The position numbers were made by a program, and so were the translations under genes. A stretch of 40,694 bases of DNA. Origin: a virus. Its lineage: Duplodnaviria > Heunggongvirae > Uroviricota > Caudoviricetes. This document shows, one piece after another, positions 7,101-34,632 of this stretch. The DNA is taken from IMG/VR virus record IMGVR_UViG_2874956758_000005. The stretch is one strand, 5' to 3'. Within the stretch, counting starts at the first letter, position 1, and each line of letters starts with the position of its first letter. The notes under the pieces are model-generated. The model was not told the origin of the DNA. It did not search any database and was given only the letters and a program-made list of their open reading frames with translations.

Positions 7101-7560
7101 TGATATCTTTTTCCGTCACCCAGCCACCATTACGCTGTATCTGAACCAGCAGGCGAACTTCCGACGGATTCCGGTCCCCCTTTGAGGTGGTTTCCACCAG
7201 TGCCTGCACACCGAAGGTAAAGCGCAGTCGGTCGATGTTTGCCGACGTGATGGCGCGGGTGATCGGCGTGTCGTATTTCACTTCCGTACCCAGCACCGTC
7301 TCGGAGCCGGAGGATTCAAATCCCTCCGGCGGTGTCTGCTCCTGCTCACCGGCCCGGAACACCACCGTGACGCCGGAGATGTTGGTATTCCCCTCACTGT
7401 CCAGCACTGGCGTACTGTTCAGCAGCACGCTTTTTAATCCATCCACCGGACCTTCAATCGGCCCTTCGCTGATGGCATCGATCACACTCAGCAACTGCGT
7501 GGACTTCAGGTTGTCCTTCGCTTCGCGCGGAGTATGCCCCTTACTGCTGCCTTTACCCAT
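4147..7560 (-). CDS. J: tail tip / host specificity protein J
   Basis: 1137-aa ORF beginning [24 protein letters not shown], the characteristic lambda J N-terminus; follows I. Confidence 0.9.
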
Positions 7561-15017: not shown

Positions 15018-15463
15018 TTACTTAAGACCTCATCAATAGCCTGATTCATTCGCTGTATGGCAACCTGCGCCGCCAGCTCCTCTGTCGTATCGAAAGCCGG
15101 GCGAATGAATGGATGCGCGGGCATGTTTATCGTTCCCAGCTCCACAAAGCGCCAGTAAAATGCATTTCGGGGATCGCTGGCTTTCATGCTGTTATCACTG
15201 TTTCCGGTTCGCAGGTTCCGTCCGCGAATGTGGACACCCGAGATAATTTCCCCCCGACGCTTTGAACGCTGAGTGAGAACAACCACATTTTTCTTCAGTT
15301 TCCCGGTTCGCTCCGGCGCACGTTCAACAACTGCATCCCGCATAACTTCAGCACCGGCACGGGTGGCATCGCGCAGAACCTTATTGTTTTCTGCCCTGCT
15401 GAGCGTCTCCAAATCCCGTGCAATATCCGCCAGGCCGGAAAAATCAAGACTGAAATCCATCAC
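15014..15463 (-). CDS. HK97 gp10-family neck/tail component
   Basis: 149-aa ORF; position and sequence character consistent with HK97 gp10-like proteins. Confidence 0.6.
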   Translation of the reverse strand: MMDFSLDFSGLADIARDLETLSRAENNKVLRDATRAGAEVMRDAVVERAPERTGKLKKNVVVLTQRSKRRGEIISGVHIRGRNLRTGNSDNSMKASDPRNAFYWRFVELGTINMPAHPFIRPAFDTTEELAAQVAIQRMNQAIDEVLSK

Positions 15464-15798
15464 ACATTCCCCTTCAGGCTGCAGAGTATTTCAAGCCGGG
15501 TAGCGCGTGCATCCGGTATTGGTGGACCTTCTATACCCAGAATGGCCCCTTTAAATGCACCGGTCAGCACTTTCAGACGTGAAGTCGCTGTCACATCGCG
15601 CCGGAATCTCATCCAGACTCTGACCGTAGCCTGAGCGGTTTCTGCTCCGCCTGAGATTATCTCCCTCCCGCTGATACCCTTAACTTCTGCCCATACGGTA
15701 GCTCCCTCCGTCACCGTCTCCACCGGATGCCCTGACGGAGAGCGGGCGGTGGTGACATTCAGAATAATTACGCGATCACGTAATCTGCCCGCCTGCAT
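15460..15798 (-). CDS. head closure / head-tail adaptor protein
   Basis: 112-aa ORF following the gp6-like connector gene, overlapping neighbours by 4 nt. Confidence 0.6.
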   Translation of the reverse strand: MQAGRLRDRVIILNVTTARSPSGHPVETVTEGATVWAEVKGISGREIISGGAETAQATVRVWMRFRRDVTATSRLKVLTGAFKGAILGIEGPPIPDARATRLEILCSLKGNV

Positions 15799-21785: not shown

Positions 21786-22136
21786 TCAATTGATGCGTTC
21801 GCGCGCTGTTTTTGCTTTATGACAGGGCCAGCACAGACTCTGCAGGTTACTGTCTGCATCCGTGCCACCATGAGCTTTCGGAATGATGTGGTCCACAGTT
21901 CTGGCTTCAACGGCTCTCCCATTGCGCAGGCAGTTCTGACACAGATGATTATCACGCTTCAGTATGCGCGCACGTATGGCATCCCATTTCGAGCCATAGC
22001 CACGCTGGTGGCGGCTCAGTCCGCGTTGATGCTGTACCCATCCTTCGCCACGATGTTTATCGCAGTAACCAGAACTGTCTGTGGTTGTACCTGCACATCC
22101 ACGCTTACGGCAGGCGCGTGGGATTCGTGATGGCAT
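21786..22136 (-). CDS. HNH endonuclease (terminase-associated)
   Basis: 116-aa ORF with Cys pairs and ...DHIIPKAHGGTDADSNLQSLCWPCH... HNH motif, directly upstream of terminase. Confidence 0.85.
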   Translation of the reverse strand: MPSRIPRACRKRGCAGTTTDSSGYCDKHRGEGWVQHQRGLSRHQRGYGSKWDAIRARILKRDNHLCQNCLRNGRAVEARTVDHIIPKAHGGTDADSNLQSLCWPCHKAKTARERIN

Positions 22137-22178
22137 AAATACCTCATACCCTGCGAAATGTTTACCACGATAAAAAGG

Positions 22179-22643
22179 CTACTTAATGCACTGAGTGCGG
22201 ATATACTCCTGTGCCCCTTCCAGTTGCATCTGCATCGTCATCAGCCGCTCTCTGAGGGTGAAATAATCCCGTTCAGCGGTGTCTGCCAGTCGGGGGCTGG
22301 TTGCATTATCCACGCCGGAGGCGGTGGTGGCTTCACGCACTGACTGACAGACTGCTTTGATGTGCAACCGACGACGACCAGCGGCAACATCAGCGCGCAG
22401 AGTTTCATTTTCAGCTTTCGCATCAGCTAACTCCTTCGTGTATTTAGCATCGAGTGCATTAACATCACGCTGTCTCTGCTGCATGTCAGTAATGGTTGCG
22501 TTCGCCAGCTTCAGTTCTCTTGCGTTTTTGTCGCGCTGCTCTTTGTAGGTAATGGCGTTATCACGGTAATGATTAACAGCCCATGACAGGCGGACGATGA
22601 TGCAGATAACCAGAACGGAGATAATCGCGGTGACTCTGCTCAT
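22179..22643 (-). CDS. Rz: i-spanin Rz
   Basis: 154-aa [37 protein letters not shown]...; N-terminal TM helix plus coiled coil; start overlaps R stop (ATGA). Confidence 0.85.
22241..22423 (-). CDS. Rz1: o-spanin Rz1 (lipoprotein embedded in Rz, +1 frame)
   Basis: 60-aa [27 protein letters not shown]... with lipobox VVGC and proline run PPPPP. Confidence 0.8.
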
Positions 22644-23137
22644 TGCGGCCCCCACAAACAGACTTCACGCTCAATCTCACGACGGGTCATCAGCCCTTTC
22701 CATTGCTTACCGCCAGCATATGTCCAGCGACGTAGCTGGTCACATGCGCCTTTGATATCGCCCTGGTTTATTTTGCGAAGAAGCGTCGATGTTCTGAAAT
22801 TGCCAGCGCCCACGTTGTAAACGAACGAGTAAAGAGCGCCGCGCGTTGTTTCCGGTATATCGACTTTGATGTACGGGTTAATTTGTCTGGCGACAGTGGC
22901 AAGGTCTTTATTCAGGAGGGCTTTGCATTCTGCTTCGGTATACGTTTTACCGAGCATGATGTCTTTTCCGGTGTGTCCGTGGCATACAGTCCATACGCCA
23001 ACGATATCTTTGTATGGTATGTAGCTGACACCTTCCAGACCATCGTTACCACCTGGGCCAGTGATGAGCACAGACGCTATGGCAATAGCCCCACCACCAA
23101 TAGCAACTGCAACAGCCTTGCGTAATGATGGCGACAT
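22640..23137 (-). CDS. R: SAR endolysin (phage-21-type lysozyme R)
   Basis: 165-aa ORF; N-terminal Gly/Ala-rich signal-anchor-release segment [21 protein letters not shown], lysozyme body. Confidence 0.9.
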
Positions 23138-23352
23138 TATTCACCTCTCGCAGCCTTACGCTTGTCTTCTCTGATTTTGAAGTACAGATTTGTCAGATAA
23201 GTCAGGAAGCCCAGAACCAGACTCCCCAGTACACCAATCGCAGCCCACTGTGACGGACTGACCTGATCAAGCCACTGTAAAAACCAGTAGCCGGCACTGC
23301 CTGCGGAGGTGCCGTAGGCAATGCCCGTTGAAATTTTGTCCATGGATTTCAT
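23137..23352 (-). CDS. S: pinholin S (phage-21-type), dual-start MKSMDK
   Basis: 71-aa ORF with two TM segments; RBS GGAGGTGAGG; stop overlaps R start. Confidence 0.9.
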
Positions 23353-23644
23353 AGCCTCACCTCCGCAAATAACGGATGGCGTAGTTTTACACTGAGAAAT
23401 GAAAGGGATTTGAAAAGAAAAAACCGCAAAAGCGGGCGAAACGATATATACAGTAAGGAAAGCACTCTATCCAACAAACCACTCACAGTTAATCGGAATA
23501 AAAGCAGAGTGCTTATGAATGATCGCCTGCCCGAAGGTTAGTATTTCTGCACAGCAATTTTGCAAAAAAAAGCGATCATTCATAACTTAAACGTCTTTCA
23601 GTCACTCCGGGATTTCCCATCATCGCAGACTGAAAGACTCTAAC

Positions 23645-23720
<76 letters not shown>

Positions 23721-23723
23721 TAT

Positions 23724-23798
<75 letters not shown>

Positions 23799-23800
23799 CT

Positions 23801-23877
23801 GGACCGCCACCGGGGACTCGAACCTCGCACACTCAACTTAAAGGGTTGACGCTCTTTCCTGATGAGCTAGTGGCGGT
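23801..23877 (-). tRNA. tRNA-like gene, anticodon loop CCUUUAA (UUU, Lys-type?), atypical C33
   Basis: Perfect acceptor CCGCCAC/GTGGCGG, D arm GCTC...GAGC, anticodon stem TCAAC/GTTGA, T-loop TTCGAGT, CCA end; T-stem A-C mismatch. Confidence 0.5.
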
Positions 23878-23878
23878 T

Positions 23879-23954
23879 GGTGGCCCTTGCTGGATTTGAA
23901 CCAGCGACCTGGCGATTATGAGTCGCTCGCTCTCACCACTGAGCTAAAGGGCCG
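23879..23954 (-). tRNA. tRNA-Ile2/Met-type (anticodon CAU), ileZ-like
   Basis: 76-nt cloverleaf GGCCCTT...AAGGGCC acceptor, anticodon loop CTCATAA, T-loop TTCAAAT, CCA end. Confidence 0.7.
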
Positions 23955-24058
23955 GGCGCAGGATAATAACGTTACGAAATCAATGTTGCAAGCATTCAAA
24001 AATCACCCTTATCTCCTCCACCAGCGCATTCACCATGTCTATCCGAGATAAGTGGCAC

Positions 24059-24081
24059 AAAAAACCCGCTTGTGGGCGGGT
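24059..24081 (-). terminator. intrinsic terminator downstream of Q (tR'-like)
   Basis: Minus strand AAAACCCGCCCACAAGCGGGTTTTTT: GC stem plus T6. Confidence 0.5.
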
Positions 24082-24135
24082 TTTGTTTGCTTTTGCCATC
24101 ACGTACAAAATCGGCAAAATATCAGATTTGCATGA

Positions 24136-24164
24136 AATATATGCCTTTCAATCTACTTTTGCAA
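24136..24164 (-). promoter_or_regulatory. candidate late promoter (PR'-like)
   Basis: Minus strand TTGCAA -17 bp- TATATT overlapping the end of the Q ORF, ~50-70 nt upstream of the terminator. Confidence 0.35.
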
Positions 24165-24836
24165 CACTTTGCTTTGAAAATGCCGTCTTTTTTTTGAACG
24201 TGTTCTCATTACAAACAATAAAGCCTCACTATCCAGTCGGTGAAAAATGTGTTTCATTGCAACCCAGTGACGAGTAAATGTTTTGGACCAGTTTTTAGTT
24301 GTCACTCCCGCCAGTAATGCCAGCTCCTGGTATTCATAACCTTCCCCACCAAAAAGTTCTGCTTTTACTGCCTGCGCCGCCAGCCAGATTAATTTTTTCA
24401 GGCGTTCCTGCGTTTTCCCTGCAATTTTTCTGGTACCGGATTGAGCATTAAATTCATTCCACGCCCACTGTGTTATCGCGATCTGATATTCCCAACAAAT
24501 ACTCCCGCTGTAACACCACAACAACCAGGCTTTATGATGTTCTTCAAGAGACAGAACAGCCCGCCGCCACGATGATGTCGAAAACCCAACCGGACTGACC
24601 AGAGGAATTGACGTCCCCTTCGCCAGCGATTGCTTTCCCGGGATTGGTGGATTATCCCGCGTTATCATTTTTCCAGTCACTTCATCGCGGTACCGGATTT
24701 TTTTACGCCTGTAACGCCCTGTATCGAACATGGCATTCTCTTGCCAGGCTTCAAGCTGACCTTTTGTTGCCCCACTCAAATCAGCGGTGGCGATAATGAG
24801 CTGCTCACGCACAAACTGTAAATACTGGTTATTCAT
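24153..24836 (-). CDS. putative late antiterminator Q
   Basis: 227-aa ORF immediately upstream of late promoter/terminator, tRNAs and lysis genes; ATG overlaps rusA stop (ATGA). Assignment mainly positional. Confidence 0.5.
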   Translation of the reverse strand: MNNQYLQFVREQLIIATADLSGATKGQLEAWQENAMFDTGRYRRKKIRYRDEVTGKMITRDNPPIPGKQSLAKGTSIPLVSPVGFSTSSWRRAVLSLEEHHKAWLLWCYSGSICWEYQIAITQWAWNEFNAQSGTRKIAGKTQERLKKLIWLAAQAVKAELFGGEGYEYQELALLAGVTTKNWSKTFTRHWVAMKHIFHRLDSEALLFVMRTRSKKRRHFQSKVLQK

Positions 24837-25198
24837 GCGCACCCCAGTTCTGTGATTTTTATCCCCAGCCGCCCACCAGGAACGAGCTGACCGCGCACAA
24901 TATTGATTTCATCAAACTGCTCGTCGTCTATAAGTAGTCCAGCATGCGTCAGCGCATCCAGCGGTGCCTTCAGGATATTGTCCAGGTCACGACGGCGCTT
25001 ATCCGGTGGCTCTGCAATAATCTTTATCGCCAGCCTTCCGGACAGGTTTAATTTCAGTCGCTGCTGGCGAACAATTAGCGCCACATCACGGCGATAACGC
25101 TTTCCGGCTTCCGAGATGAAATACGTATTGCCATGACGTCGCCAGTAGGTATTCACCGTCGGCGGGTAAGGCAAAACAAATTCTATGCGTTCAGTCAT
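24833..25198 (-). CDS. rusA: Holliday junction resolvase RusA
   Basis: 121-aa ORF with ...PPDKRRRDLDNILKAPLDALTHAGLLIDDEQ... RusA catalytic Asp cluster. Confidence 0.85.
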   Translation of the reverse strand: MTERIEFVLPYPPTVNTYWRRHGNTYFISEAGKRYRRDVALIVRQQRLKLNLSGRLAIKIIAEPPDKRRRDLDNILKAPLDALTHAGLLIDDEQFDEINIVRGQLVPGGRLGIKITELGCA

Positions 25199-26257
25199 TC
25201 ATGCTTTCCACTTCAGGACACCCGAATTTCTCGCGTGCATTAAAAAACGAATCAGCAACAACAGCTGGCTGCCGTGTTTTTCTTCAAAATCTTTTACCCC
25301 GGCGTGCAGTTCGTTATGACATTTACGGCACAGCGGAATAACAAACAAATCATCAGCCTTTGTTCCCATCCCTCCCAGTCCATGACCAATGATGTGATGC
25401 GGATCATCTGCCTGATTGCCACACGTCATGCATTTCTGCGTTTTTACCCAGCGCGTGTATACGGGCATCTCTTCCCGTTGTGGTTTCTGGCGCTGGAGAT
25501 ACTGAGCCGGAGAATCCGGATCAACGGCAATGCTGACCACCGTCTTTTCCTGTGGTGGATTCTGTTGCTGGTGGGCGTGAGGCAACGGCGCAATATTTTT
25601 TGTGCGCTGCTTCAGTATGCTGGTGGCGGTCTGCGCTCCCGGTACGATATCGCTTTCGCGGTATACTGAGCGGATTTTTTCTACCGGTAATCCCAGCGAA
25701 CGACGTAATACTGCCTCCGGTAGCGCGTCCGCCACCTGATTGCAGAGCGCCCACCAGGATAATTCAGCCAGAGATAATTCACGCTCCTGCGTACCGCTTA
25801 TTGCGTGACCGATGACGTCAATCATCCATGCTGACAGGTTTTGATGAGCAAGTTGCCCGAGTGATTCGGATGTCTGGTCACGCAACTGGTTGTCGCAGTG
25901 CCAGCACAACACCATTGCGCCGGTACCATAACGGTGAATGACGGTTTCGCTGTGATGATAATCGCCGTGTGGCCACTGGCAGGATTTAACGTGGCGTAAC
26001 AGCCAGTCAGACAGTGCACCAGCACCGCCAGCAGCACGAATCACACGCTCATCGCTGAAAAATGGCAGTAATGATTTGTCCTCCGCCAGCGGCTGGCGAA
26101 CGGCAGGAACGACCCCGGACGGCAGATTACGCATGCTTTTCGGTTCCGGCTCCACCAGTACCCGGGTATTGTGGAATACCGGCATGGATTCACGGCCTGG
26201 CTTAAGGACCACCAGCCCGAGTTCCGGAACCAGAACAGGTCGAAGTAATACCCGCAC
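25199..26257 (-). CDS. DUF968-family prophage protein (YdfU-like) with C-terminal HNH-like Cys/His motif
   Basis: 352-aa ORF; C-terminal ...CMTCGNQADDPHHIIGHG...CRKCHNELH; typical nin-region position upstream of rusA/Q. Confidence 0.7.
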   Translation of the reverse strand: MRVLLRPVLVPELGLVVLKPGRESMPVFHNTRVLVEPEPKSMRNLPSGVVPAVRQPLAEDKSLLPFFSDERVIRAAGGAGALSDWLLRHVKSCQWPHGDYHHSETVIHRYGTGAMVLCWHCDNQLRDQTSESLGQLAHQNLSAWMIDVIGHAISGTQERELSLAELSWWALCNQVADALPEAVLRRSLGLPVEKIRSVYRESDIVPGAQTATSILKQRTKNIAPLPHAHQQQNPPQEKTVVSIAVDPDSPAQYLQRQKPQREEMPVYTRWVKTQKCMTCGNQADDPHHIIGHGLGGMGTKADDLFVIPLCRKCHNELHAGVKDFEEKHGSQLLLLIRFLMHARNSGVLKWKA

Positions 26258-26258
26258 A

Positions 26259-26537
26259 TTACCTCCAGATGCGTTGCTGGAATGTGCGGGACGGACGCGG
26301 TGGGCGTTCAGAGTAAGGAAGCCTGACGGAGATTATCCAGTGACGATAATCGAGGCTGAGGGCTTTCTTAATCTCGTATCCGTGTCTGCGGTAGCACTGA
26401 ATTAGCCACTCGGCCTGTTCTTCAGTGCATGGGTCATGCTGGAACCAGTCAGATTTGAAAGTGCGGGAACGCCGCCCGTGCCTGCTGGCAAAGACGGCAG
26501 AATCATCAGAATTGTGTAATTTGGTATCGTGCGCCAT
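26259..26537 (-). CDS. hypothetical small protein upstream of DUF968
   Basis: 92-aa ORF from ATG 26537 (MAHDTKLHNSDDS...); co-oriented and abutting DUF968 gene. Confidence 0.4.
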   Translation of the reverse strand: MAHDTKLHNSDDSAVFASRHGRRSRTFKSDWFQHDPCTEEQAEWLIQCYRRHGYEIKKALSLDYRHWIISVRLPYSERPPRPSRTFQQRIWR

Positions 26538-26672
26538 CGGTTGTCTCTGCTGGCGCAGCAGGTGCCAGTTGTTCAGGCTGGCGTGCGGCAATATTGTCTC
26601 TGATTTCTGTTGTCGTCAACAGGCAGCGTGCTATCATCGAATAGTGTTCTATCCTACTCCTTGAGGTTTACC

Positions 26673-26930
26673 ATGCGTACAACCCAACAATTCAGCATTA
26701 CATTAACTAACGAGATGGCTGACATGGTGCGCGCCCGTGTGGCTTCCGGTGCCTATGCTTCAGAAAGCGAGGTCATTCGTGAAGGGCTTCGCGCACTGAA
26801 TGAGCGCGATAAAGCAATCGAAGCGTGGTTAACGCATTCAGCCGCCCCCTCTCTTGATTCTATCCGCGAAAATCCAAACAACGGACGCTCCATTTCACAG
26901 GTTCGCGCCGCGATTCGATCCGGAAAGTAA
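26673..26930 (+). CDS. ParD/CopG-type ribbon-helix-helix antitoxin
   Basis: 85-aa ORF MRTTQQFSITLTNEMADMVRARVASGAYASESEVIREGLRAL...; GAGG RBS; 5 bp upstream of toxin gene. Confidence 0.7.
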   Translation: MRTTQQFSITLTNEMADMVRARVASGAYASESEVIREGLRALNERDKAIEAWLTHSAAPSLDSIRENPNNGRSISQVRAAIRSGK

Positions 26931-26935
26931 TCTGC

Positions 26936-27247
26936 ATGACATATGAAGTCATCATTACTCCTGAGGCCGAACAACAAATAATCAACCTGCACAGATATAT
27001 AACTGAGAAAGCAGGGAACGTCATTGCTGACAATTATGCCAATGCACTTCTTGATTATCTTGATGGGTTTTCTACATTCCCGCATCGGGGCAATAAACGC
27101 GATGATATTCGCCAGGGGATGCGGGTAACTCATTTCCGCCACAGAACGATTATTGCTTTTGCCGTTGATGACAATAAAGTTTTTATCGCAGGCGTATACC
27201 ACGGTGGGCAAATCTATGAAACCGATTTTTTATCCAGTGCACCGTAA
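26936..27247 (+). CDS. ParE/RelE-family toxin
   Basis: 103-aa ORF directly following antitoxin; family-typical layout (N-terminal helices, C-terminal beta region ...FAVDDNKVFIAGVYHGGQ). Confidence 0.7.
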   Translation: MTYEVIITPEAEQQIINLHRYITEKAGNVIADNYANALLDYLDGFSTFPHRGNKRDDIRQGMRVTHFRHRTIIAFAVDDNKVFIAGVYHGGQIYETDFLSSAP

Positions 27248-27287
27248 AACCCCCATCCTTCAGGGCGTGGCGGATATCAAACTTTGG

Positions 27288-28370
27288 TCATTTTCTCTGG
27301 CTGATCTTTACCGGATAACCATCCCGAAGATCAATTAAGTGCTCCGGTTCAGAAGCAAACCATGCATAAGATCCCCACGCCAATTCTGGTATTGCCTTTT
27401 TAAAAGGCAGAGCACTTCTGTCCATAAATGCCGTAAGGAATGCAAGATTTTTCTCGCTGAACCCAGCGTCAATAGCCAAATGAGTGAGAGTAACTTTTCG
27501 TTCCCTGTTTATAGGCCCATCTGTCGCAACTACTTCAGTGAAAACTACAAGCATGTCCGAACCCGTTCGGTCCTCTCCCAAATCAATCAAAATAATATCT
27601 GGAAGTGCTTTTGAGGCATCAATATTCAGCCCCAATGCTTTTGCCAATACATCATCCTGAGCAACAACTTTATTCCCGGATTCAGACAACCAGAGCACAG
27701 TTGGATTCTTAAGAAAATTAGGAGCAAAAACTTCGATGACGGCCTTAGCTATTGTACTTGACGGGCCCGGAGCTAAAGTTCTCTTCTCTCCATTTGGGAA
27801 AGTGACGACTACGGCATCAGCAGCAATCACTGCCCCTGATTTCAATAAACGCAACCTGGCAAGAGCGGCTTTGTTCAAATGATTTTCTTGCCAGGAACTT
27901 ATTGCACTCAGCAGCGAATCTCCTTCAAGCCCGGCATCAAAGAGTGCTGCAAAAGAGCGATTCAAACTGTAACGAGGACGAGAGGATGTGGTGGGTATAC
28001 CTTTACGCTCAACAATTGCATTGCAAGGTATTAGGCCATTTTTTATAGTTTCATCACGTATTGGCTCACGCGTATTTTCCGCATACCATGCATCAGCAGG
28101 CCTTATCTTTTGTTTAGAGAAAGTCATCTTTACCCAGCTTTCTCTGGACGCATCATCAGTAAGAGCAGCCTGCGAATCTCCCATACTTACAACCTGGCTG
28201 GGCCTTATCCATCGCCCCAGCCCCTCAACCGCACCAGCATAAAACATGACAAAAATTGTTTTTGCAGCTATTTCCCGAATTAAATATCCACGATTCTCAG
28301 TCCCTTCAGGGAAAATTAATTGTAATCTTTCCCGGATAACATTCAATGGGGGAACAACAGGCAGATTCAT
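27288..28370 (-). CDS. type II restriction endonuclease, BsuBI/PstI family (putative)
   Basis: 360-aa ORF translationally coupled (ATGA overlap) to upstream N6-adenine methyltransferase; AT-richer than flanking phage genes. Confidence 0.6.
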   Translation of the reverse strand: MNLPVVPPLNVIRERLQLIFPEGTENRGYLIREIAAKTIFVMFYAGAVEGLGRWIRPSQVVSMGDSQAALTDDASRESWVKMTFSKQKIRPADAWYAENTREPIRDETIKNGLIPCNAIVERKGIPTTSSRPRYSLNRSFAALFDAGLEGDSLLSAISSWQENHLNKAALARLRLLKSGAVIAADAVVVTFPNGEKRTLAPGPSSTIAKAVIEVFAPNFLKNPTVLWLSESGNKVVAQDDVLAKALGLNIDASKALPDIILIDLGEDRTGSDMLVVFTEVVATDGPINRERKVTLTHLAIDAGFSEKNLAFLTAFMDRSALPFKKAIPELAWGSYAWFASEPEHLIDLRDGYPVKISQRK

Positions 28371-30199
28371 GCAATCATCACTCCATAGAAACCAGCGATA
28401 GTTCTCTCAATAATCCGTCTGTGGACGCCAGCATCAATTAACGATTGAATCTCCATCACCTGCTCCAGAGAAGGCAACGGGATTGAATTCAATTCATAGG
28501 CCGAAACAGCAACACTTCCGCTTATACACCTGAACGCCCGATCGACAACATGCGAATTAAGTAGCATATCAATAACATCAGGGCGAACCGCAGAGAACAA
28601 TCCGTTTGAATATACAATATTAATATGGTTTTCAACTACTACGCCACCAGTTTCATCTATAAATCCCTGAGGTAAAATTGCCGCTAAAATCCTTCTGTCC
28701 TGTTCCTTCGATGTTGTCCGCTGAACAAGCACACATTCAGATTTTGTCACAAGGAAACCCTGTTGTGGGGTTATATCGATATAGGGAACATGATTTTTTC
28801 TGTCTGCACTAAAACGAAAACCAGCTGAAGTTATTGATTCCGCCCAGACTAATGGGTAGCTATTTTTTCCTTTCGTCGTACGCAACTGCGACTTAAATCG
28901 ATTCCAGACTAACTGACCTGTAGAGACTGAGTATCCCAGATCAGCTAAACGCGTAGACATCTGTTTTAATACATTAAGAAAACAGGCATCATCTTTAACG
29001 CGTGGCAAAAGCCACGTTGCTCCACCTTTTTCTATATCAACATTACCTATTTTCTCAATTTTTGCTTTGTTCAACCCCTTAGGGACAAGTGAGGATACCT
29101 GGGCCCGAACTTTATGTTCTCCCGCCTTGAATGCTGTCAACATTGTTTCCTGGAGAACATCGTCAAAGACCCCATCCCTGTCAGCGACGAAATCAAGGGC
29201 ATACGGAGTAGTTTTTTCGGTCAAAAGGGTTCGCAGCGCGGTGAAATACTGCCCACCAAGAAAAGAAGTTGGCGTAAGAAATGCAATAACTCCTGTTTTC
29301 TCTTTAACCATGCGAACAGCTAAGTCGGTGAACAATCCATATAGATTTGCATGACCAAATAACGAACGAGAATATTTTTCTCTCGTTTTAATATCGAGAG
29401 TGACACGTCCGTAAGGCGGATTCCCTACCACAAGATCATAACCAGAAAATTTATCTTGCTGAAGCGCATCAGCAACAATAATTGTATCTTCAGGCAATCT
29501 ACGTTTTACCTTTACACATAGTGGCATTAGTACAGATTCGAGCAATACCAAACTCATCCAAGCCGCAAATGGATCGATTTCTATCCCCTTTAAACGACGA
29601 CTGATTCTCCTCAACATCCATTCAGGGGAAGACCCCTTGTCTTTTTTTAACATTCGAATGGCTACTGGTGCCAAAAATGCACCGCCACCACACGCAGGAT
29701 CAATAACCGATGCATGAGAAAAATCAACACCAGACTTTTCAGCCAGGTCCAAGAGACGCGCTACCAAAGGTGGGGGGGTATAGTAAGCCCCCAATTCCGA
29801 ACGGTAAGCGGATGGCAGCATTACCGTATAAATTGACCCAATCAGATATCCAGCGTCCTCCGCCGGAAATTGAGCAATAAGCTCACCTGTTCGTTCAGCG
29901 AGCTCGCGTGCATCACATGGAATGTCTTCTATGTAAACAGTGTGCGGTACTGCCCTCATTTTAATGCTGCTTTTTTGCTTTTTTGCAAGGGTATCCCAAT
30001 ATGCAGCTACGATGCTGAAGCAGTATGAGCGGGCATGCATCAACCTTGACTGCCCGGTTTTGTAATTGCCCGCATAACCTTTGGCCATGGCTTTACAAGT
30101 TTGATATCTTTCCAGATTAGAAAACTCATTATCTGTAAAAAAATCAAAATGTTGCACATTCATAATGTAAAATCCTAATGTATCAAACATGCGGGCCAT
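28367..30199 (-). CDS. N6-adenine DNA methyltransferase (Eco57I/PstI-type, gamma-class)
   Basis: 610-aa ORF with AdoMet motif I VIDPACGGGAFL followed by catalytic motif IV VVGNPPYGR; start could be ATG 30199 or 30163. Confidence 0.8.
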   Translation of the reverse strand: MARMFDTLGFYIMNVQHFDFFTDNEFSNLERYQTCKAMAKGYAGNYKTGQSRLMHARSYCFSIVAAYWDTLAKKQKSSIKMRAVPHTVYIEDIPCDARELAERTGELIAQFPAEDAGYLIGSIYTVMLPSAYRSELGAYYTPPPLVARLLDLAEKSGVDFSHASVIDPACGGGAFLAPVAIRMLKKDKGSSPEWMLRRISRRLKGIEIDPFAAWMSLVLLESVLMPLCVKVKRRLPEDTIIVADALQQDKFSGYDLVVGNPPYGRVTLDIKTREKYSRSLFGHANLYGLFTDLAVRMVKEKTGVIAFLTPTSFLGGQYFTALRTLLTEKTTPYALDFVADRDGVFDDVLQETMLTAFKAGEHKVRAQVSSLVPKGLNKAKIEKIGNVDIEKGGATWLLPRVKDDACFLNVLKQMSTRLADLGYSVSTGQLVWNRFKSQLRTTKGKNSYPLVWAESITSAGFRFSADRKNHVPYIDITPQQGFLVTKSECVLVQRTTSKEQDRRILAAILPQGFIDETGGVVVENHINIVYSNGLFSAVRPDVIDMLLNSHVVDRAFRCISGSVAVSAYELNSIPLPSLEQVMEIQSLIDAGVHRRIIERTIAGFYGVMIA

Positions 30200-30413
30200 A
30201 ACATCTCATGGTGGCGCATAGCAAACTGGCCCGAAGAATATCACGCACCAAGTCGATCTCATAACCCGTTATGACAATAAATCTTTGTAGCTGAACTCAC
30301 TTGGTGATTTGTCAATCATTCCTGGCCTCCAGTTCGTCCTGAATCTCTTTATCGAGTTCACCGTATTTGTTAGTCCTCATCACTCACGACTTGACTTCCA
30401 GAAATAACCTTGA

Positions 30414-30770
30414 TTATTCGGGGCTATATTTTGTCACCCTGCGTATCCGCGCTTTCGCATTACGCTCAATCTGGATTAGCTTTTCTATATTTTTTCGCCT
30501 TTCCCGCTCCTCCTGGCGCAAGAGCCTTACATCATCTGCCAGTCTGGTTTCTCTTTTCGCCACAGAGAGCATCCAGTCAAACGGCTCCACAACCGCACCG
30601 CAGATTTTACAGCGGACCTGACGCTCTTTTTCGTCAACCCGGACAGAAGCGTGATGGCAATATGGTCTTTCCGATGGCTCATAAAGAAAATTAACCTGAT
30701 TACGAGGGTTATCCTCTTTTACCGGAAATAAAACGATATTGCTTAACTCATCTTCTGGTTTTATTTCCAT
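30414..30770 (-). CDS. hypothetical protein with Cys/His cluster
   Basis: Start chosen at ATG 30770 (AAGGAG 6 nt upstream; MEIKPEDELSN...); contains CHH...CKIC; an in-frame ATG at 30827 is an alternative. Confidence 0.4.
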   Translation of the reverse strand: MEIKPEDELSNIVLFPVKEDNPRNQVNFLYEPSERPYCHHASVRVDEKERQVRCKICGAVVEPFDWMLSVAKRETRLADDVRLLRQEERERRKNIEKLIQIERNAKARIRRVTKYSPE

Positions 30771-30827
30771 GCTCCTCTCCTTTGATGCGAATGCCAGCGG
30801 TAATTGAAGCCTGATAGCTAATTTCAT

Positions 30828-31250
30828 TCACAGTATCGCCTCCTGAAAATTACCCTGATAGAAAGCCAGTACACGCTGCATAGCTTCGCTTTTACGACAC
30901 TCAGTACAGATTATATTCAGGCGCCTGTCGTAGCGGCGTATTTCTCCGTCAGGTAATGACCAGATAAGGTCCGGATCAACGACAACCGGTTTCCTCACCT
31001 TTACTCTCGAGAGTTTTTTGCGGGCGCTTTGCCAGTCCTTGCGAGCCTGTTCAGACGGGAATAAGCCGTAGCCAGAATTATATACATCACCACTTGCGAC
31101 CAGTTCCATGCATAAGCGACCGACAGACGCACGACTGATACCTGTTTCATCTGACAACTGCCGAATCGTGACCCGACCGTCCTGATGCACGAGTTCCACA
31201 ATTCGCGTCTTCAGTTCCTCCCGCTGTTCGGGAGTAAAAGGTTTCGCCAT
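30828..31250 (-). CDS. hypothetical winged-helix DNA-binding protein
   Basis: 140-aa ORF after DnaC-like gene; HTH-like segment ...TIRQLSDETGISRASVGRLCMEL... Confidence 0.4.
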   Translation of the reverse strand: MAKPFTPEQREELKTRIVELVHQDGRVTIRQLSDETGISRASVGRLCMELVASGDVYNSGYGLFPSEQARKDWQSARKKLSRVKVRKPVVVDPDLIWSLPDGEIRRYDRRLNIICTECRKSEAMQRVLAFYQGNFQEAIL

Positions 31251-31264
31251 AAATCCTCCTGAAA

Positions 31265-32011
31265 CTACTTAACAACCCTCGAATGGCTAACATTCGGACG
31301 CCAGCTCTCCCAGTTAAAATTCACCCAGCGCCCGCCGTTCATGACCATGCGATCCATCACCCGCTCGCCGAGAAGTGTATTCATCGCTGCATGGTTAATA
31401 TTTGTCAGCATCCCCACACCGCGTAACGATGCCGTCCGGCGATCAACAATCTGGTTCAGTACCACCTGCTCGTTTTTCGTATCCCGCTGCATGCCAATTT
31501 CATCCAGGACCAGCAGGTCAACACCACAAAGCTCCTGTAAAAATTTTTCACCGGATTTGCCGTTGTCGTAGCTCTCATGCAACACGCTCATGACATCGGA
31601 CACGGTGACGATAATCACGCTACGCCCCTTCGCCATCAGCCGGTTGCCAATCGCGGCTGCAAGATGATTTTTTCCGGTGCCGGGCTTACCGCTGAACACA
31701 AAATTCGTACAGCCTGTCATCAGTTCGTCAGCGATGGATTTCGCCTGACTCAGTGCATGTCGCTGACCGTCGTTCTGCGCCCGGTAATTCGCAAACGAAC
31801 ACTTCCGGTGCAACGGCTGGATGCCGGAGCGGTTCAGGATTTTTTCTACCCGCAACTGACGATTCTGACGGTTAATCTCCCTGCAACGCTTCCGACCTTC
31901 AGCAAGCTGCCACTCCTGCCATTCTTCCGCCGTCCGGAACAATGGTGTCACGTGCTGCGGTACCAGCCTGCGAATACGTTCCAGAGCGCCCCCTGACGCA
32001 ATGTTTTTCAT
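31265..32011 (-). CDS. DnaC-like helicase loader / replication protein (IstB-type ATPase)
   Basis: 248-aa ORF with Walker A FSGKPGTGKNHLAAAIG and Walker B DLLVLDEIG. Confidence 0.85.
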   Translation of the reverse strand: MKNIASGGALERIRRLVPQHVTPLFRTAEEWQEWQLAEGRKRCREINRQNRQLRVEKILNRSGIQPLHRKCSFANYRAQNDGQRHALSQAKSIADELMTGCTNFVFSGKPGTGKNHLAAAIGNRLMAKGRSVIIVTVSDVMSVLHESYDNGKSGEKFLQELCGVDLLVLDEIGMQRDTKNEQVVLNQIVDRRTASLRGVGMLTNINHAAMNTLLGERVMDRMVMNGGRWVNFNWESWRPNVSHSRVVK

Positions 32012-32017
32012 GGTACG

Positions 32018-33088
32018 CTACCCCCTGAACCCCGGCGGTATTTCAGTATCCGGTTCAGAAATTTGATTCACACAACGCTGGTTGTTCGTACCGCTTATCG
32101 GGAGCAACCAGGGGTTTTCAAAATTCCGGTCCGGTCCAAAAAACGTCGTCGCTCGCTGAACAAATTCCGTTCCCGTTTTCCCGGTAGCCGCCAGATATCT
32201 TGCGTAACGCCTCACGCCATCCAGCATGGCCTCTGGTGGCACCCCCTCGCGTAATCTGGCCTTCCAGGCACTGAAAGCGGATTTCTTCGGGTTTGCCCCG
32301 GCACGCAACGGGTACTCCCGCCAGACCTGTTCGAACACATCCGGATAATCCACTCGTCCCACAGACTGCCCGGTGTTTTCCGGGACTACCCGATCGGCTT
32401 CCCGCTGAATGGCGGAATCGGCTTCAGGCTGCTGCAGTTGGTGTGATTGCTCCGGACTTGCGGTCATCACCTGCTGCACAGCGCCCGAATCGGCTTTCAG
32501 CGCATACGCTGAATCGGCTTCCGGTGTCGTGCCTGCTGGCTGACCAGGATTGACGGTCTGAACATCCCCTGCCTGGTTCGTGGCGTTTTTTACGCCATGG
32601 ACCATAGTGTTTTGATCTTCTTGATCTGTATCTTTATCTGTATCTTTATCTGTCGTGACTCGTCGTGACATGTGCGTGACATATCGTGACGCGCCGTGAC
32701 AATCGCCATTTTGTTCCCGCTTTCTTTCCCTCTCTCGCTGCGCCCTCTTGCGCTCTGCAGGAGATTTTGCGGTTTGCGAAATATTGCCGTTGTCCTCTTT
32801 CAGCACCTGGCGTTTTTCCCATCCAGTGATTAAATCACCATCAAGTACCCGCCCCTGCATCGTCTGCAAAATTGAATCAATTACCTCTTCTGTCACGTCG
32901 AGCGCACTTGCCAAATCTTCTGTCGTGACATCAATGTGACCTCGCGTGACATTTCGTGACGCGCTCACCAGGAGGTGGATATACACTGCCATCACTGTTG
33001 CAATTGGCTGCCCTGACACCCTGGCAATTGTTCGCCACTTAGGGTCATTTGGCATGTCATGCCATAATCTGAGCCAGGCGTTAGCCAT
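32018..33088 (-). CDS. replication initiator (lambda O position; YdaU-like)
   Basis: Start at ATG 33088 with GAGGTG RBS; contains two iteron clusters within its coding sequence; precedes DnaC-like gene. Confidence 0.6.
   Translation of the reverse strand: MANAWLRLWHDMPNDPKWRTIARVSGQPIATVMAVYIHLLVSASRNVTRGHIDVTTEDLASALDVTEEVIDSILQTMQGRVLDGDLITGWEKRQVLKEDNGNISQTAKSPAERKRAQRERERKREQNGDCHGASRYVTHMSRRVTTDKDTDKDTDQEDQNTMVHGVKNATNQAGDVQTVNPGQPAGTTPEADSAYALKADSGAVQQVMTASPEQSHQLQQPEADSAIQREADRVVPENTGQSVGRVDYPDVFEQVWREYPLRAGANPKKSAFSAWKARLREGVPPEAMLDGVRRYARYLAATGKTGTEFVQRATTFFGPDRNFENPWLLPISGTNNQRCVNQISEPDTEIPPGFRG
32653..32700. repeat. iteron array: five CGTGAC hexamers phased every 10-11 bp (putative ori)
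   Basis: CGTGAC at 32654, 32664, 32675, 32685, 32695; preceded by tandem 12-mer ATCTGTATCTTT x2.5 (32622-32650). Confidence 0.6.
32893..32960. repeat. second iteron cluster (CGTGAC/TGTGAC) with inverted copy
   Basis: GTCACG at 32893; CGTGAC at 32924, 32945, 32955 and TGTGAC at 32935, spaced ~10 bp. Confidence 0.5.
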
Positions 33089-33585: not shown

Positions 33586-33836
33586 GAATCAACTCCCATC
33601 AGCTTTTTCGTAGTAGTTTTATTCCTGCCAATAGTTAAAATTGCATCGGCAGAAAATAATCCGTTTGATGCAAGAGCGATTTTTTCAGCGTAATTTGTTT
33701 CGCCGGTATATTCTGTGCGAGGCAATTTTCCGTTATCCATCCATTTATAGATTGCTCTTTGGCTGACACCACAAACGTCGGCCACAACAGCAACGCGAAC
33801 AGTTTTGATTACATCTTCAAGTGTTTTCTGGTTCAT
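33582..33836 (-). CDS. Cro-like HTH regulator
   Basis: 84-aa ORF from ATG 33836 (GAGGGTGAT RBS); HTH ...VCGVSQRAIYKW...; divergent from repressor gene. Confidence 0.7.
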   Translation of the reverse strand: MNQKTLEDVIKTVRVAVVADVCGVSQRAIYKWMDNGKLPRTEYTGETNYAEKIALASNGLFSADAILTIGRNKTTTKKLMGVDS

Positions 33837-33915
33837 ATCACCCTCACAATGTGAACTTTGAGTACATGCTATAACAGAACTGACAGTACATTCAAGAGCG
33901 AATATCATTGAACTT
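33837..33915. promoter_or_regulatory. divergent cro/cI promoter-operator region (OR-like)
   Basis: 79-bp gap; two AGTACAT 7-mers (33861, 33885); minus-strand TTGAAT -16/17- TGTTATAGC extended -10 pointing at cro. Confidence 0.5.
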
Positions 33916-34335
33916 ATGGTTCATGAAGATAAAGCGCGTAAAGAGTTCGCCAGTAGGCTTGCGCTAGCCTGTGAAAACGCTGGTTATGAACAACATGGAA
34001 GGCAGGCAGAAATTGCCCGTCGAATGAAATTAACACCAAAAGCGGTTAGCAAATGGTTTAATGGCGAAACAATTCCTCGCCGGGAGAAATTAAGGGAATT
34101 AGCAACACTAATAGGAACAACACCAACCTATCTTTTGGGAGAGGATACAGAAGAAAGTGGACAGGTACGTTTCTATCAGGAGTTAAATCCAAGACAAAAA
34201 ATCATCATTGACCTTCTGGACGAGCTCCCTGACAGTGAGACAGATGAACTTTTAAAAACTCTTGAAGAGAAAAAACAGAAGTACAATGCAATTTACGAAG
34301 AGTTAGCACGAAAGAAAAAACAAAAAGCCTCTTAA
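33916..34335 (+). CDS. cI-like repressor, HTH_XRE only (no LexA-type peptidase domain)
   Basis: 139-aa ORF; HTH ...EIARRMKLTPKAVSKWFNGETIP...; C-terminus is a Glu/Lys-rich helix, no Ser/Lys protease motifs; no SD (leaderless-like). Confidence 0.65.
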   Translation: MVHEDKARKEFASRLALACENAGYEQHGRQAEIARRMKLTPKAVSKWFNGETIPRREKLRELATLIGTTPTYLLGEDTEESGQVRFYQELNPRQKIIIDLLDELPDSETDELLKTLEEKKQKYNAIYEELARKKKQKAS

Positions 34336-34403
34336 ACCAGCATAAATCCGGTAGCGCCTTCCTCCGGGTTTGTGCTTCACTTTATCCCATCTCATTTTTT
34401 TAC

Positions 34404-34460
34404 ACACAAAATGTACTATAAGTACTTTACAACAATGAACGCAAAGTACATTATATACCT
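34404..34460 (+). promoter_or_regulatory. putative leftward promoter/operator (OL/PL-like)
   Basis: ATGTACT (34411), AGTACT (34421), AGTACAT (34445) repeats with TTTACA -17- CATTAT promoter-like spacing. Confidence 0.35.
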
Positions 34461-34632
34461 GCCACCCACCCCGCCCCACAGAATGCAGGGCAATACTTCG
34501 AGTTACCAGGCAGTGGTCAGGGGTTAAGTAGCCAGCCCGAGGCGTAAGAACATGACGGCAGGGTTCAACTTTAATAACTATGCAGCAGGTTTTTGTTCCG
34601 CTACCCCGGCGTTAAGGGGAAATGAGGTCAGC

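Follow-up and report, generated by a model that had tools for sequence, protein, structure and literature searches.

Closest Described Systems and the Locus under Study

EcoGIII, a Type II restriction–modification (R-M) system located on Stx2a prophages of E. coli O104:H4, O145 and O111, methylates and cleaves CTGCAG, places N6-methyladenine (m6A) in the context CTGC(m6A)G, and restricts lambda-like phages (PMC6602927, PMC3893438). EcoGIII methylation is also reported to alter the expression of ~1,950 genes in E. coli O104:H4 (PMC6602927). PstI and BsuBI are the prototype Type IIP enzymes for CTGCAG, and the methyltransferase M.PstI has been placed in the same class of monomeric gamma methyltransferases as M.TaqI (PMC3874165). 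Here, we describe a related pair of genes in a 40,694-nucleotide (nt) stretch of viral DNA (Caudoviricetes; IMG/VR record IMGVR_UViG_2874956758_000005), which at its full length is referred to below as the window. The pair occupies positions 27288-30199 of the minus strand and consists of a methyltransferase gene, M, followed by an endonuclease gene, R.

An earlier reading made from the window's sequence alone (below, the original prediction) took the two genes for a prophage-borne Type II R-M pair. Pfam, a sequence search of the PDB, a fold search, PADLOC and RefSeq all agree with the core of this reading. We consider it highly probable, on the comparisons presented below, that the pair is an orthodox Type II R-M system carried as prophage cargo, in which a gamma-class methyltransferase and an endonuclease of the PstI/BsuBI/SdaI family act on the same palindromic site. 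Systems of this kind are already known: RefSeq annotates the pair, PADLOC has dedicated profiles for it, and phage-borne EcoGIII is a published precedent.

Predicted Functions of R and M

The R gene (27288..28370, minus strand) encodes a protein of 360 amino acids (aa), WP_001053102.1 in RefSeq. Its product scored far above the Pfam cut-off of 27 bits with both domains of the family, PF17728 (106.6 bits, expect value (E) 1.2e-30) and PF06616 (152.2 bits, E 9.3e-45), and has the two-domain layout of the family, i.e., an N-terminal winged-helix (helix-turn-helix) domain followed by a C-terminal PD-(D/E)XK-type nuclease domain. Both the homology search and the structure search that the original prediction had proposed for this protein matched SdaI (PDB entry 2ixs), which is the only solved relative. 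The sequence search of the PDB gave E 1.8e-16; when the AlphaFold model of R was compared with the PDB by Foldseek, 2ixs was the sole match with E ≤ 0.001 (7.5e-15, 361 aligned columns, both domains). The TM-score of R and 2ixs is low (0.39-0.44), reflecting a different orientation of the domains and a model of only moderate confidence. The PADLOC profile REase_II PDLC03589 (364 positions) matched R end to end (E 2.8e-128). The RefSeq annotation points the same way, and the earlier assignment of the 360-aa protein to the BsuBI/PstI endonucleases is borne out: by sequence and model, R is a Type II endonuclease of the BsuBI/PstI/SdaI family.

For comparison with EcoGIII, we used an intact EcoGIII-type operon from an Stx2a phage record (L004), whose M and R proteins have 489 and 317 aa, respectively, and whose genes overlap by 4 nt. 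Residues P257-D258, E279, V281, G285-P286, R291 and K234 of R are common to the EcoGIII-type endonuclease and SdaI, and all of them, with the catalytic core P257-D258, E279-x-V, G285-P286 and R291, are unchanged in 41 homologues. The counterparts of P257-D258 and E279 are D233 and E248 in SdaI and D226 and E241 in the EcoGIII-type enzyme; three positions after the glutamate, the three proteins have A, T and K. R has no lysine at the classical (D/E)XK position. This could be taken as the mark of a dead nuclease, an interpretation that we rejected because the EcoGIII-type enzyme, which is active, likewise lacks this lysine, and lysine migration in the SdaI subfamily has been described by Orlowski and Bujnicki (PMC2441816). 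The core of R is of the displaced-lysine kind.

The M gene (28367..30163, minus strand) encodes 598 aa when read from its conserved start; an upstream ATG at 30199, the start used by RefSeq (WP_000113425.1) and in the original prediction, gives an open reading frame (ORF) of 610 aa (28367..30199, minus strand). The M protein passed the Pfam cut-offs for Eco57I (51.4 bits against 25.3) and N6_Mtase (37.7 bits against 20.4). Motif I, DPACGGGAFL, begins at aa 167 and motif IV, NPPY, at aa 260 of the 610-aa form; in 598-aa numbering, DPACGGGAF and NPPY lie at aa 155 and 248, and both are invariant in 39 homologues. As expected for the gamma class, motif I is N-terminal to NPPY, and the recognition domain follows at the C-terminus of the same polypeptide; these C-terminal ~250 aa are homologous to those of M.EcoGIII. 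The AlphaFold2 model of full-length M (predicted local distance difference test score (pLDDT) 87.9, predicted template modelling score 0.86) had CamA, M.BseCI and M.TaqI as its best folds in the PDB (E 1e-18 to 4e-20), and the PADLOC profile MTase_II PDLC03338 (604 positions) matched M end to end (E 1e-298). Sequence and model together class M as a monomeric gamma-class N6-adenine DNA methyltransferase, as had originally been proposed from its motifs.

Gene Order, Junction and Start Codon

Both ORFs lie on the minus strand in the order M–R and, as the original prediction had it, the start codon of R overlaps the stop codon of M by 4 nt in the sequence ATGA (28367-28370). The junction (28367..28384, minus strand), read directly, consists of GGAG (28384-28381), 10 nt and ATGA (28370-28367). 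This GGAG-N10-ATGA arrangement is the architecture of translational coupling and would allow ribosomes finishing M to start on R. It is kept in seven aligned relatives (L007-L013) and in the EcoGIII-type operon. Separate, adjacent methyltransferase and endonuclease genes are what a Type II system is expected to have, and M is found directly upstream of R in 80 of 80 related loci from different species.

The start of M is most probably the ATG at 30163, i.e., Met13 of the longer ORF, judging from an alignment of the regions upstream of prophage-borne homologues. Neither this ATG nor the TAGGA that precedes it by 8-10 nt varies in the alignment, while the first ATG (30199) is ATA in four relatives (L010-L013), where a 1-nt deletion also throws the second ATG out of frame. 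Moreover, nearly all homologues of M are 598 aa long. The Shine–Dalgarno sequence AGGA upstream of the start at 30163 is located at 30176-30173 (minus strand).

A Distant Sister Lineage of Characterised Enzymes

Alignment of both genes indicates that the pair is distantly homologous, as a whole operon, to CHARACTERISED systems. R is 26% identical to the EcoGIII-type endonuclease (E 4e-22), and the alignment of M with M.EcoGIII, which starts at motif IV and takes in the entire recognition domain, shows 25% identity (E 7e-27). The EcoGIII-type endonuclease and SdaI are 41% identical to each other, although they recognise 6 bp and 8 bp, respectively, whereas R is only 26-28% identical to either. 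Since R is more distant from both than they are from each other, its lineage is placed by these identities as an outgroup to both the EcoGIII/PstI-type enzymes and SdaI, and can be called a distant sister to the enzymes that have been characterised. R also contains segments that are absent from the EcoGIII-type endonuclease and SdaI, namely ~40 N-terminal residues and insertions at ~140-160 and 264-270.

The REBASE-derived profiles of PADLOC for this lineage are separate from those of 317, 324 and 840 positions, which fit the lengths of EcoGIII/PstI-type, SdaI-type and fused M-R proteins, respectively. The whole family forms 1,004 clusters at 50% identity, ~180 of which lie this near (E ≤ 1e-30). 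The lineage has thousands of members with 52-89% identity in several bacterial phyla.

Recognition Sequence

The target is presumably CTGCAG or a near relative that has the TGCA core and, proceeding from the relatives that have been characterised, we lean slightly towards exactly CTGCAG. The original prediction had named this site on the condition that R is PstI-like, which makes it plausible but not a consequence of family membership. EcoGIII, Psy9853I, XorKII and SdaI all cut a site that contains CTGCAG; the first three were the only characterised systems to turn up in the searchable literature. Further, at three loci (L037:4410-7071, L039:4407-7059 and L087:767-3995) an R protein that belongs to this lineage (53-60% identical) has as its partner a methyltransferase of 511-537 aa that is 31-36% identical to PstI/EcoGIII-type methyltransferases (E down to 4e-81) versus 25-28% identical to M. 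Such pairings indicate, as far as alignments can tell, partner swapping between two methyltransferase lineages. Since both methyltransferase lineages serve the same endonuclease lineage, a shared or very similar target is the simplest explanation.

Several points weigh against an active, CTGCAG-specific pair at work in the lysogen. Neither protein is close enough to a characterised CTGCAG enzyme for its specificity to be transferred (26% for R, 25% for M). Family membership does not fix the target, because PstI-type enzymes and SdaI differ in specificity at 41% identity and R is an outgroup to both. The searchable literature yielded no methylome or cleavage data for this lineage. The structural model of R is of moderate confidence only (pLDDT 74.9). 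A consensus scan revealed no σ70 promoter on the coding strand upstream of M, so that expression in the lysogen is only a presumption; for genes at this position, in the nin region, most transcription could come from read-through in lytic growth, starting at the early rightward promoter. Finally, in one assembly (L099:3172-5004, GCA_040189005.1) a 1-nt indel frameshifts M while R is intact, which, if real, argues that R is weak, silent or tolerated without M there; it may also be a sequencing error.

The first of these points lead to the alternative that survives best, namely that the pair is a functional Type II system with another target, which may be a further palindrome with a TGCA core (ATGCAT, for instance), a site of 8 bp as in SdaI, or an unrelated sequence. 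We regard this as a substantial possibility, somewhat short of an even chance. The 26-28% identity of R to two enzymes that themselves differ in specificity, the 25% identity of M to M.EcoGIII, the separation of PDLC03589 and PDLC03338 from the PstI-type and SdaI-type profiles, and the segments of R without counterpart in both relatives all speak for it. On the other hand, the CTGCAG core is common to all characterised family members that we met, R proteins of this lineage also pair with PstI-type methyltransferases, and positive evidence for any other motif was nowhere found in the present comparisons.

Palindromic hexamers were examined for avoidance in 62 non-redundant M-R cassettes and their flanks. 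CTCGAG and CAGCTG were avoided, equally so in the flanks; the observed-to-expected ratios of CTGCAG (1.12 and 0.90) and ATGCAT (0.89 and 0.98) were unremarkable. The window contains 22 CTGCAG sites, versus a Markov expectation of 25.8, and so is neither enriched nor depleted. The original prediction was right that the hexamer occurs several times and that one copy starts at position 6, while two further copies placed at 15476 and 21841 actually start at 15479 and 21840. Positions 21846-32431 (10.6 kb comprising the lysis genes, Q, the nin region with the R-M pair and replication genes) have no CTGCAG at all, the average spacing of sites in the window being 1.85 kb (P ~0.03 if sites were placed uniformly). 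The partly higher AT content of this stretch may explain it.

Prophage Context and Relation to ParDE

The window is a lambdoid prophage. An integrase and an excisionase are located at its right end by potC, and the prophage further contains a DicB/YdfC region, replication genes, DUF977, DUF968, RusA and Q genes, a tRNA cluster, lysis genes, and HK97-type head and tail genes. Homology to two prophages without the R-M pair (L005 and L006) ends at 27233, 14 nt before the parE stop codon, and resumes at 30410-30428. The inserted material (27234..30409, ~3.2 kb, GC content 0.439) is absent from otherwise homologous prophages. A search of its boundaries for terminal direct or inverted repeats or target duplications gave nothing convincing. 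The R-M pair is cargo (a "moron") in the nin-like region, between replication/DUF977 and DUF968-RusA-Q genes. The pair is AT-richer than its flanks, as the original prediction noted (43.6% GC versus 51.3% for the rest of the window); the feature is not confined to it, since positions 33.5-37 kb are equally AT-rich.

Downstream of R and convergent with it lie parD (26673-26930, plus strand) and parE (26936-27247, plus strand), both with ParD or ParE matches in Pfam and NCBIfam. The parE stop at 27247 and the R stop at 27288 are separated by 40 bp (27248..27287), the distance given in the original prediction; a consensus scan of this spacer for a terminator-like hairpin was negative. The original prediction went on to join ParDE and the R-M pair into a single defence/addiction island. 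Such an island, co-inherited and moving as a unit, is in our view very improbable. The two modules do stand 40 bp apart in convergent orientation in the window, and equally in the two complete E. coli genomes with the pair and at locus L101, and remnants of the S. sonnei type (see below) keep the last 112 nt of parE beside R. The adjacency is real, but the rest of the evidence speaks against joint inheritance. ParD and ParE with the same flanks are found in many E. coli prophages, in a backbone of the order DUF968, small ORF, ParD, ParE, ..., 118-aa ORF, DUF977, with other cargo (DUF551 or Ea22-like) at the slot of the R-M pair, and the identical ParD (WP_001260977.1) occurs in prophages without the pair. 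Homology to the R-M-less prophages breaks at the parE stop. The insertion replaced this stop codon, so that ParE has 103 aa (…ETDFLSSAP), four residues more than the 99 aa (…DFL) of sibling prophages, and is otherwise unchanged. Conversely, the closest homologues of the pair (81-89% identical, in Kluyvera- and Citrobacter-type prophages, on contigs from Kluyvera and further Enterobacteriaceae) are found at the corresponding slot of different lambdoid prophages and have DinI, not ParDE, downstream, and in chromosomes of the S. sonnei type ParDE is destroyed while the R-M pair persists. Plasmids, integrase/MobA elements and SGI1-type islands carry more distant members of the lineage. ParDE thus belongs to the backbone of the phage and lies outside the cassette; the two modules are neighbours in a cargo hotspot.

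Directly upstream of the cargo, a 118-aa hypothetical ORF (30414..30770, minus strand) was considered as a possible R-M controller protein. It was rejected in this role: it belongs to the backbone, adjoining DUF977 in R-M-less prophages, and has no Pfam match above the cut-off and no PADLOC match. A 137-aa ORF upstream of M was likewise discarded as a controller, being backbone without a family match above the cut-off.

As in many lambdoid and Stx phages, a tRNA cluster (23645-23953) lies downstream of the Q antiterminator gene; its four genes were assigned by ARAGORN as Gly-TCC, Thr-TGT, Lys-TTT and one with a CAT anticodon (tRNA-Ile in RefSeq). Compared with the copy in E. coli FDAARGOS_943 (L014; GCF_016026335.1), a carrier of the pair, the prophage in the window is a less damaged sibling that is otherwise 99.3-99.97% identical. 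In that copy, tail and head genes are interrupted by an IS66+IS110 block and by IS21, and there are several frameshifts; the window is free of these insertions (7432-7439 and 15439-15442) and of the frameshifts. A DnaC-like ORF (31265-32011) is intact in the window and frameshifted in FDAARGOS_943. Positions 33590-34467, in the cro/cI region, have no match to the FDAARGOS_943 prophage.

Distribution and Remnants in Shigella sonnei

The pair is present in 2 of 5,426 complete E. coli genomes, and near and distant nucleotide searches of phage and plasmid collections retrieved no record that carries it. In the assembly collection, by contrast, 4,192 blocks are indexed for the exact R protein; the names that their sources give are for the most part Shigella sonnei, with strain 53G among them. 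Of the 4.8-5.0-Mb chromosomes read under this source name (loci L097-L104), the majority have the prophage reduced to a remnant. Homology to the window there extends from the DUF977 gene across both R-M genes and the 40-bp spacer into parE, of which the last 112 nt (27136-27247) are left; the insertion sequence IS1 cuts in 112 nt from the 3′ end of parE and is followed by host genes (mannitol dehydrogenase, ydfZ and a GntR regulator). ParDE and the whole late region have been lost from the remnants, and M and R are intact. The survival of an intact R-M pair in a prophage that has been stripped to this extent fits selection for the pair or resistance of the pair to its own loss.

Methyltransferases borne on prophages are often orphans. 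This, the absence of a consensus promoter upstream of M in the scan and the frameshifted M beside an intact R in L099 would fit a pair in which R is decayed or silent, leaving what is effectively an orphan methyltransferase with a purely epigenetic role. We regard this as very improbable. R is full length and has all the residues that are invariant in its 41 homologues, together with the PD...E core of SdaI and the EcoGIII-type endonuclease; its exact protein sequence is kept across the carriers read, and strong purifying selection holds the lineage at 52-89% identity in different phyla. Only one broken M was met, with a 1-nt indel in a single assembly that may be a sequencing error.

The remaining alternative, that M is a Type I HsdM-like subunit in need of separate specificity and restriction subunits, as might be suggested by its PGAP/RefSeq name ("HsdM family class I SAM-dependent methyltransferase", which is generic) and by weak and partial matches of Type I profiles and of Type I M subunits in the PDB, can be practically dismissed, given that no hsdS or hsdR was found within 19 kb around the pair, that ~250 aa at the C-terminus of M itself form a domain with homology to the one in M.EcoGIII, that its full-length model fits the DNA-bound monomeric gamma methyltransferases CamA, M.BseCI and M.TaqI, and that PADLOC classes it as MTase_II.

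Upstream Region and Proposed Mode of Action

The non-coding part of the cargo upstream of M (30164..30409, minus strand) is ~245 nt long, and its proximal ~110 nt (30164-30273) are conserved among prophage-borne homologues. Within the alignment of this region, TGATATTCT at 30243-30235 (minus strand) is invariant and could, by its sequence, be an extended -10 promoter element. The conserved region also contains a perfect inverted repeat, CATAAC-GG-GTTATG (30273-30260, minus strand), and an imperfect palindrome, ATGCGCCACCAT…ATGGCCCGCAT, lies between the candidate -10 element and the start codon (window positions 30191-30219). Either the repeat or the longer palindrome could serve as an operator or form a hairpin in the 5′ untranslated region.

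In an orthodox Type II system of the kind proposed here, M would be translated first and would read the target through its own C-terminal domain, while R would be produced by ribosomes coupling across the GGAG-N10-ATGA junction. M would methylate adenine on both strands of the palindromic target, and R, presumably a dimer like other Type IIP enzymes of the family, would cut unmethylated copies of the target in incoming DNA. The lysogen would thereby be protected against unmodified phage and plasmid DNA. Upon loss of the genes, methylation would be diluted out and the chromosome exposed, leading to post-segregational cutting; exposure of the chromosome after gene loss is established behaviour of several Type II systems.

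One can also envisage that the widespread lineage of ~360-aa endonucleases and 598-aa methyltransferases represents a further, non-CTGCAG specificity within the PstI/SdaI superfamily and, in addition, that the pair, being located in the nin region and not beside cI, is expressed mainly in lytic growth and used by the phage against competing DNA rather than for the lysogen. This combination appears doubtful, with perhaps a minor share of the probability.

If active, the orthodox pair would form a lineage-wide barrier to the entry of phages and plasmids into S. sonnei and be a source of genome-wide m6A in an important pathogen. As a discovery, this ordinary system carries little weight.

Comparison with Known Systems

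The pair resembles EcoGIII in that it is carried by a lambdoid prophage, has M before R with the GGAG-N10-ATGA overlap, and combines a gamma-class m6A methyltransferase with a two-domain endonuclease of the BsuBI/PstI family. It differs from EcoGIII in that the EcoGIII proteins are shorter (489 and 317 aa) and only 25-26% identical to M and R; nucleotide similarity between the two is nil. The location differs as well: EcoGIII adjoins cI in the immunity region, whereas the present pair follows the replication genes, in the nin-like region.

PstI and BsuBI share with R both Pfam domains, and are partnered, as here, by a methyltransferase of the monomeric gamma class whose recognition domain is C-terminal (PMC3874165). 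The comparison of R with them was made through the EcoGIII-type endonuclease as a proxy, to which R is 26% identical, and the PADLOC profiles that match here have 364 and 604 positions, in contrast to 317 and 494 for the PstI type. At 2,423 bp, Psy9853I agrees in size with the short PstI type and not with this lineage. Both domains of R align with those of SdaI (CCTGCA^GG; 2ixs), and the two proteins share the PD...E...GP...R core and the displaced catalytic lysine. Unlike R, which is 28% identical to it, SdaI is close to the PstI type (41%), nearer than either is to R, and it reads 8 bp (CCTGCAGG).

XorKII of Xanthomonas oryzae pv. oryzae KACC10331 is, similarly, a Type IIP system on a mobile, transposon-like unit, and cuts CTGCAG (PMC2853133). 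XorKII may belong either to the ~360-aa lineage or to the short PstI type. Xanthomonas species do carry members of the R lineage of ~362 aa (L035, L053 and P0391-P0394). At the locus from X. oryzae pv. oryzicola (L096:797-7721), the M-R pair is flanked on one side by a MobA/MobL relaxase gene and on the other by an Abi_2 abortive-infection gene together with an integrase, and is part of a small defence cluster on an integrative element; this MobA/integrase element is not the inverted-repeat unit described for XorKII. Classical PstI isoschizomers occur in genera with members of this lineage, for example XphI in X. phaseoli, where the plasmid of the type strain carries a member (L053); in the searches made here, no named enzyme could be linked to the lineage.

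Pairs with the same annotation, a BsuBI/PstI-type restriction enzyme and an N6-methylase, are present on integrative and mobilizable elements of the SGI1 family (AGI1 genes A025-A026; Vibrio mimicus, E. coli and Shewanella) (PMC9035990). The AGI1 pair is likened to the present one by annotation, and its carrier, unlike that studied here, is an integrative and mobilizable element and not a prophage. The V. mimicus methyltransferase (P0198) is 60% identical to M, and the lineage to which the window's pair belongs therefore travels on several kinds of mobile element.

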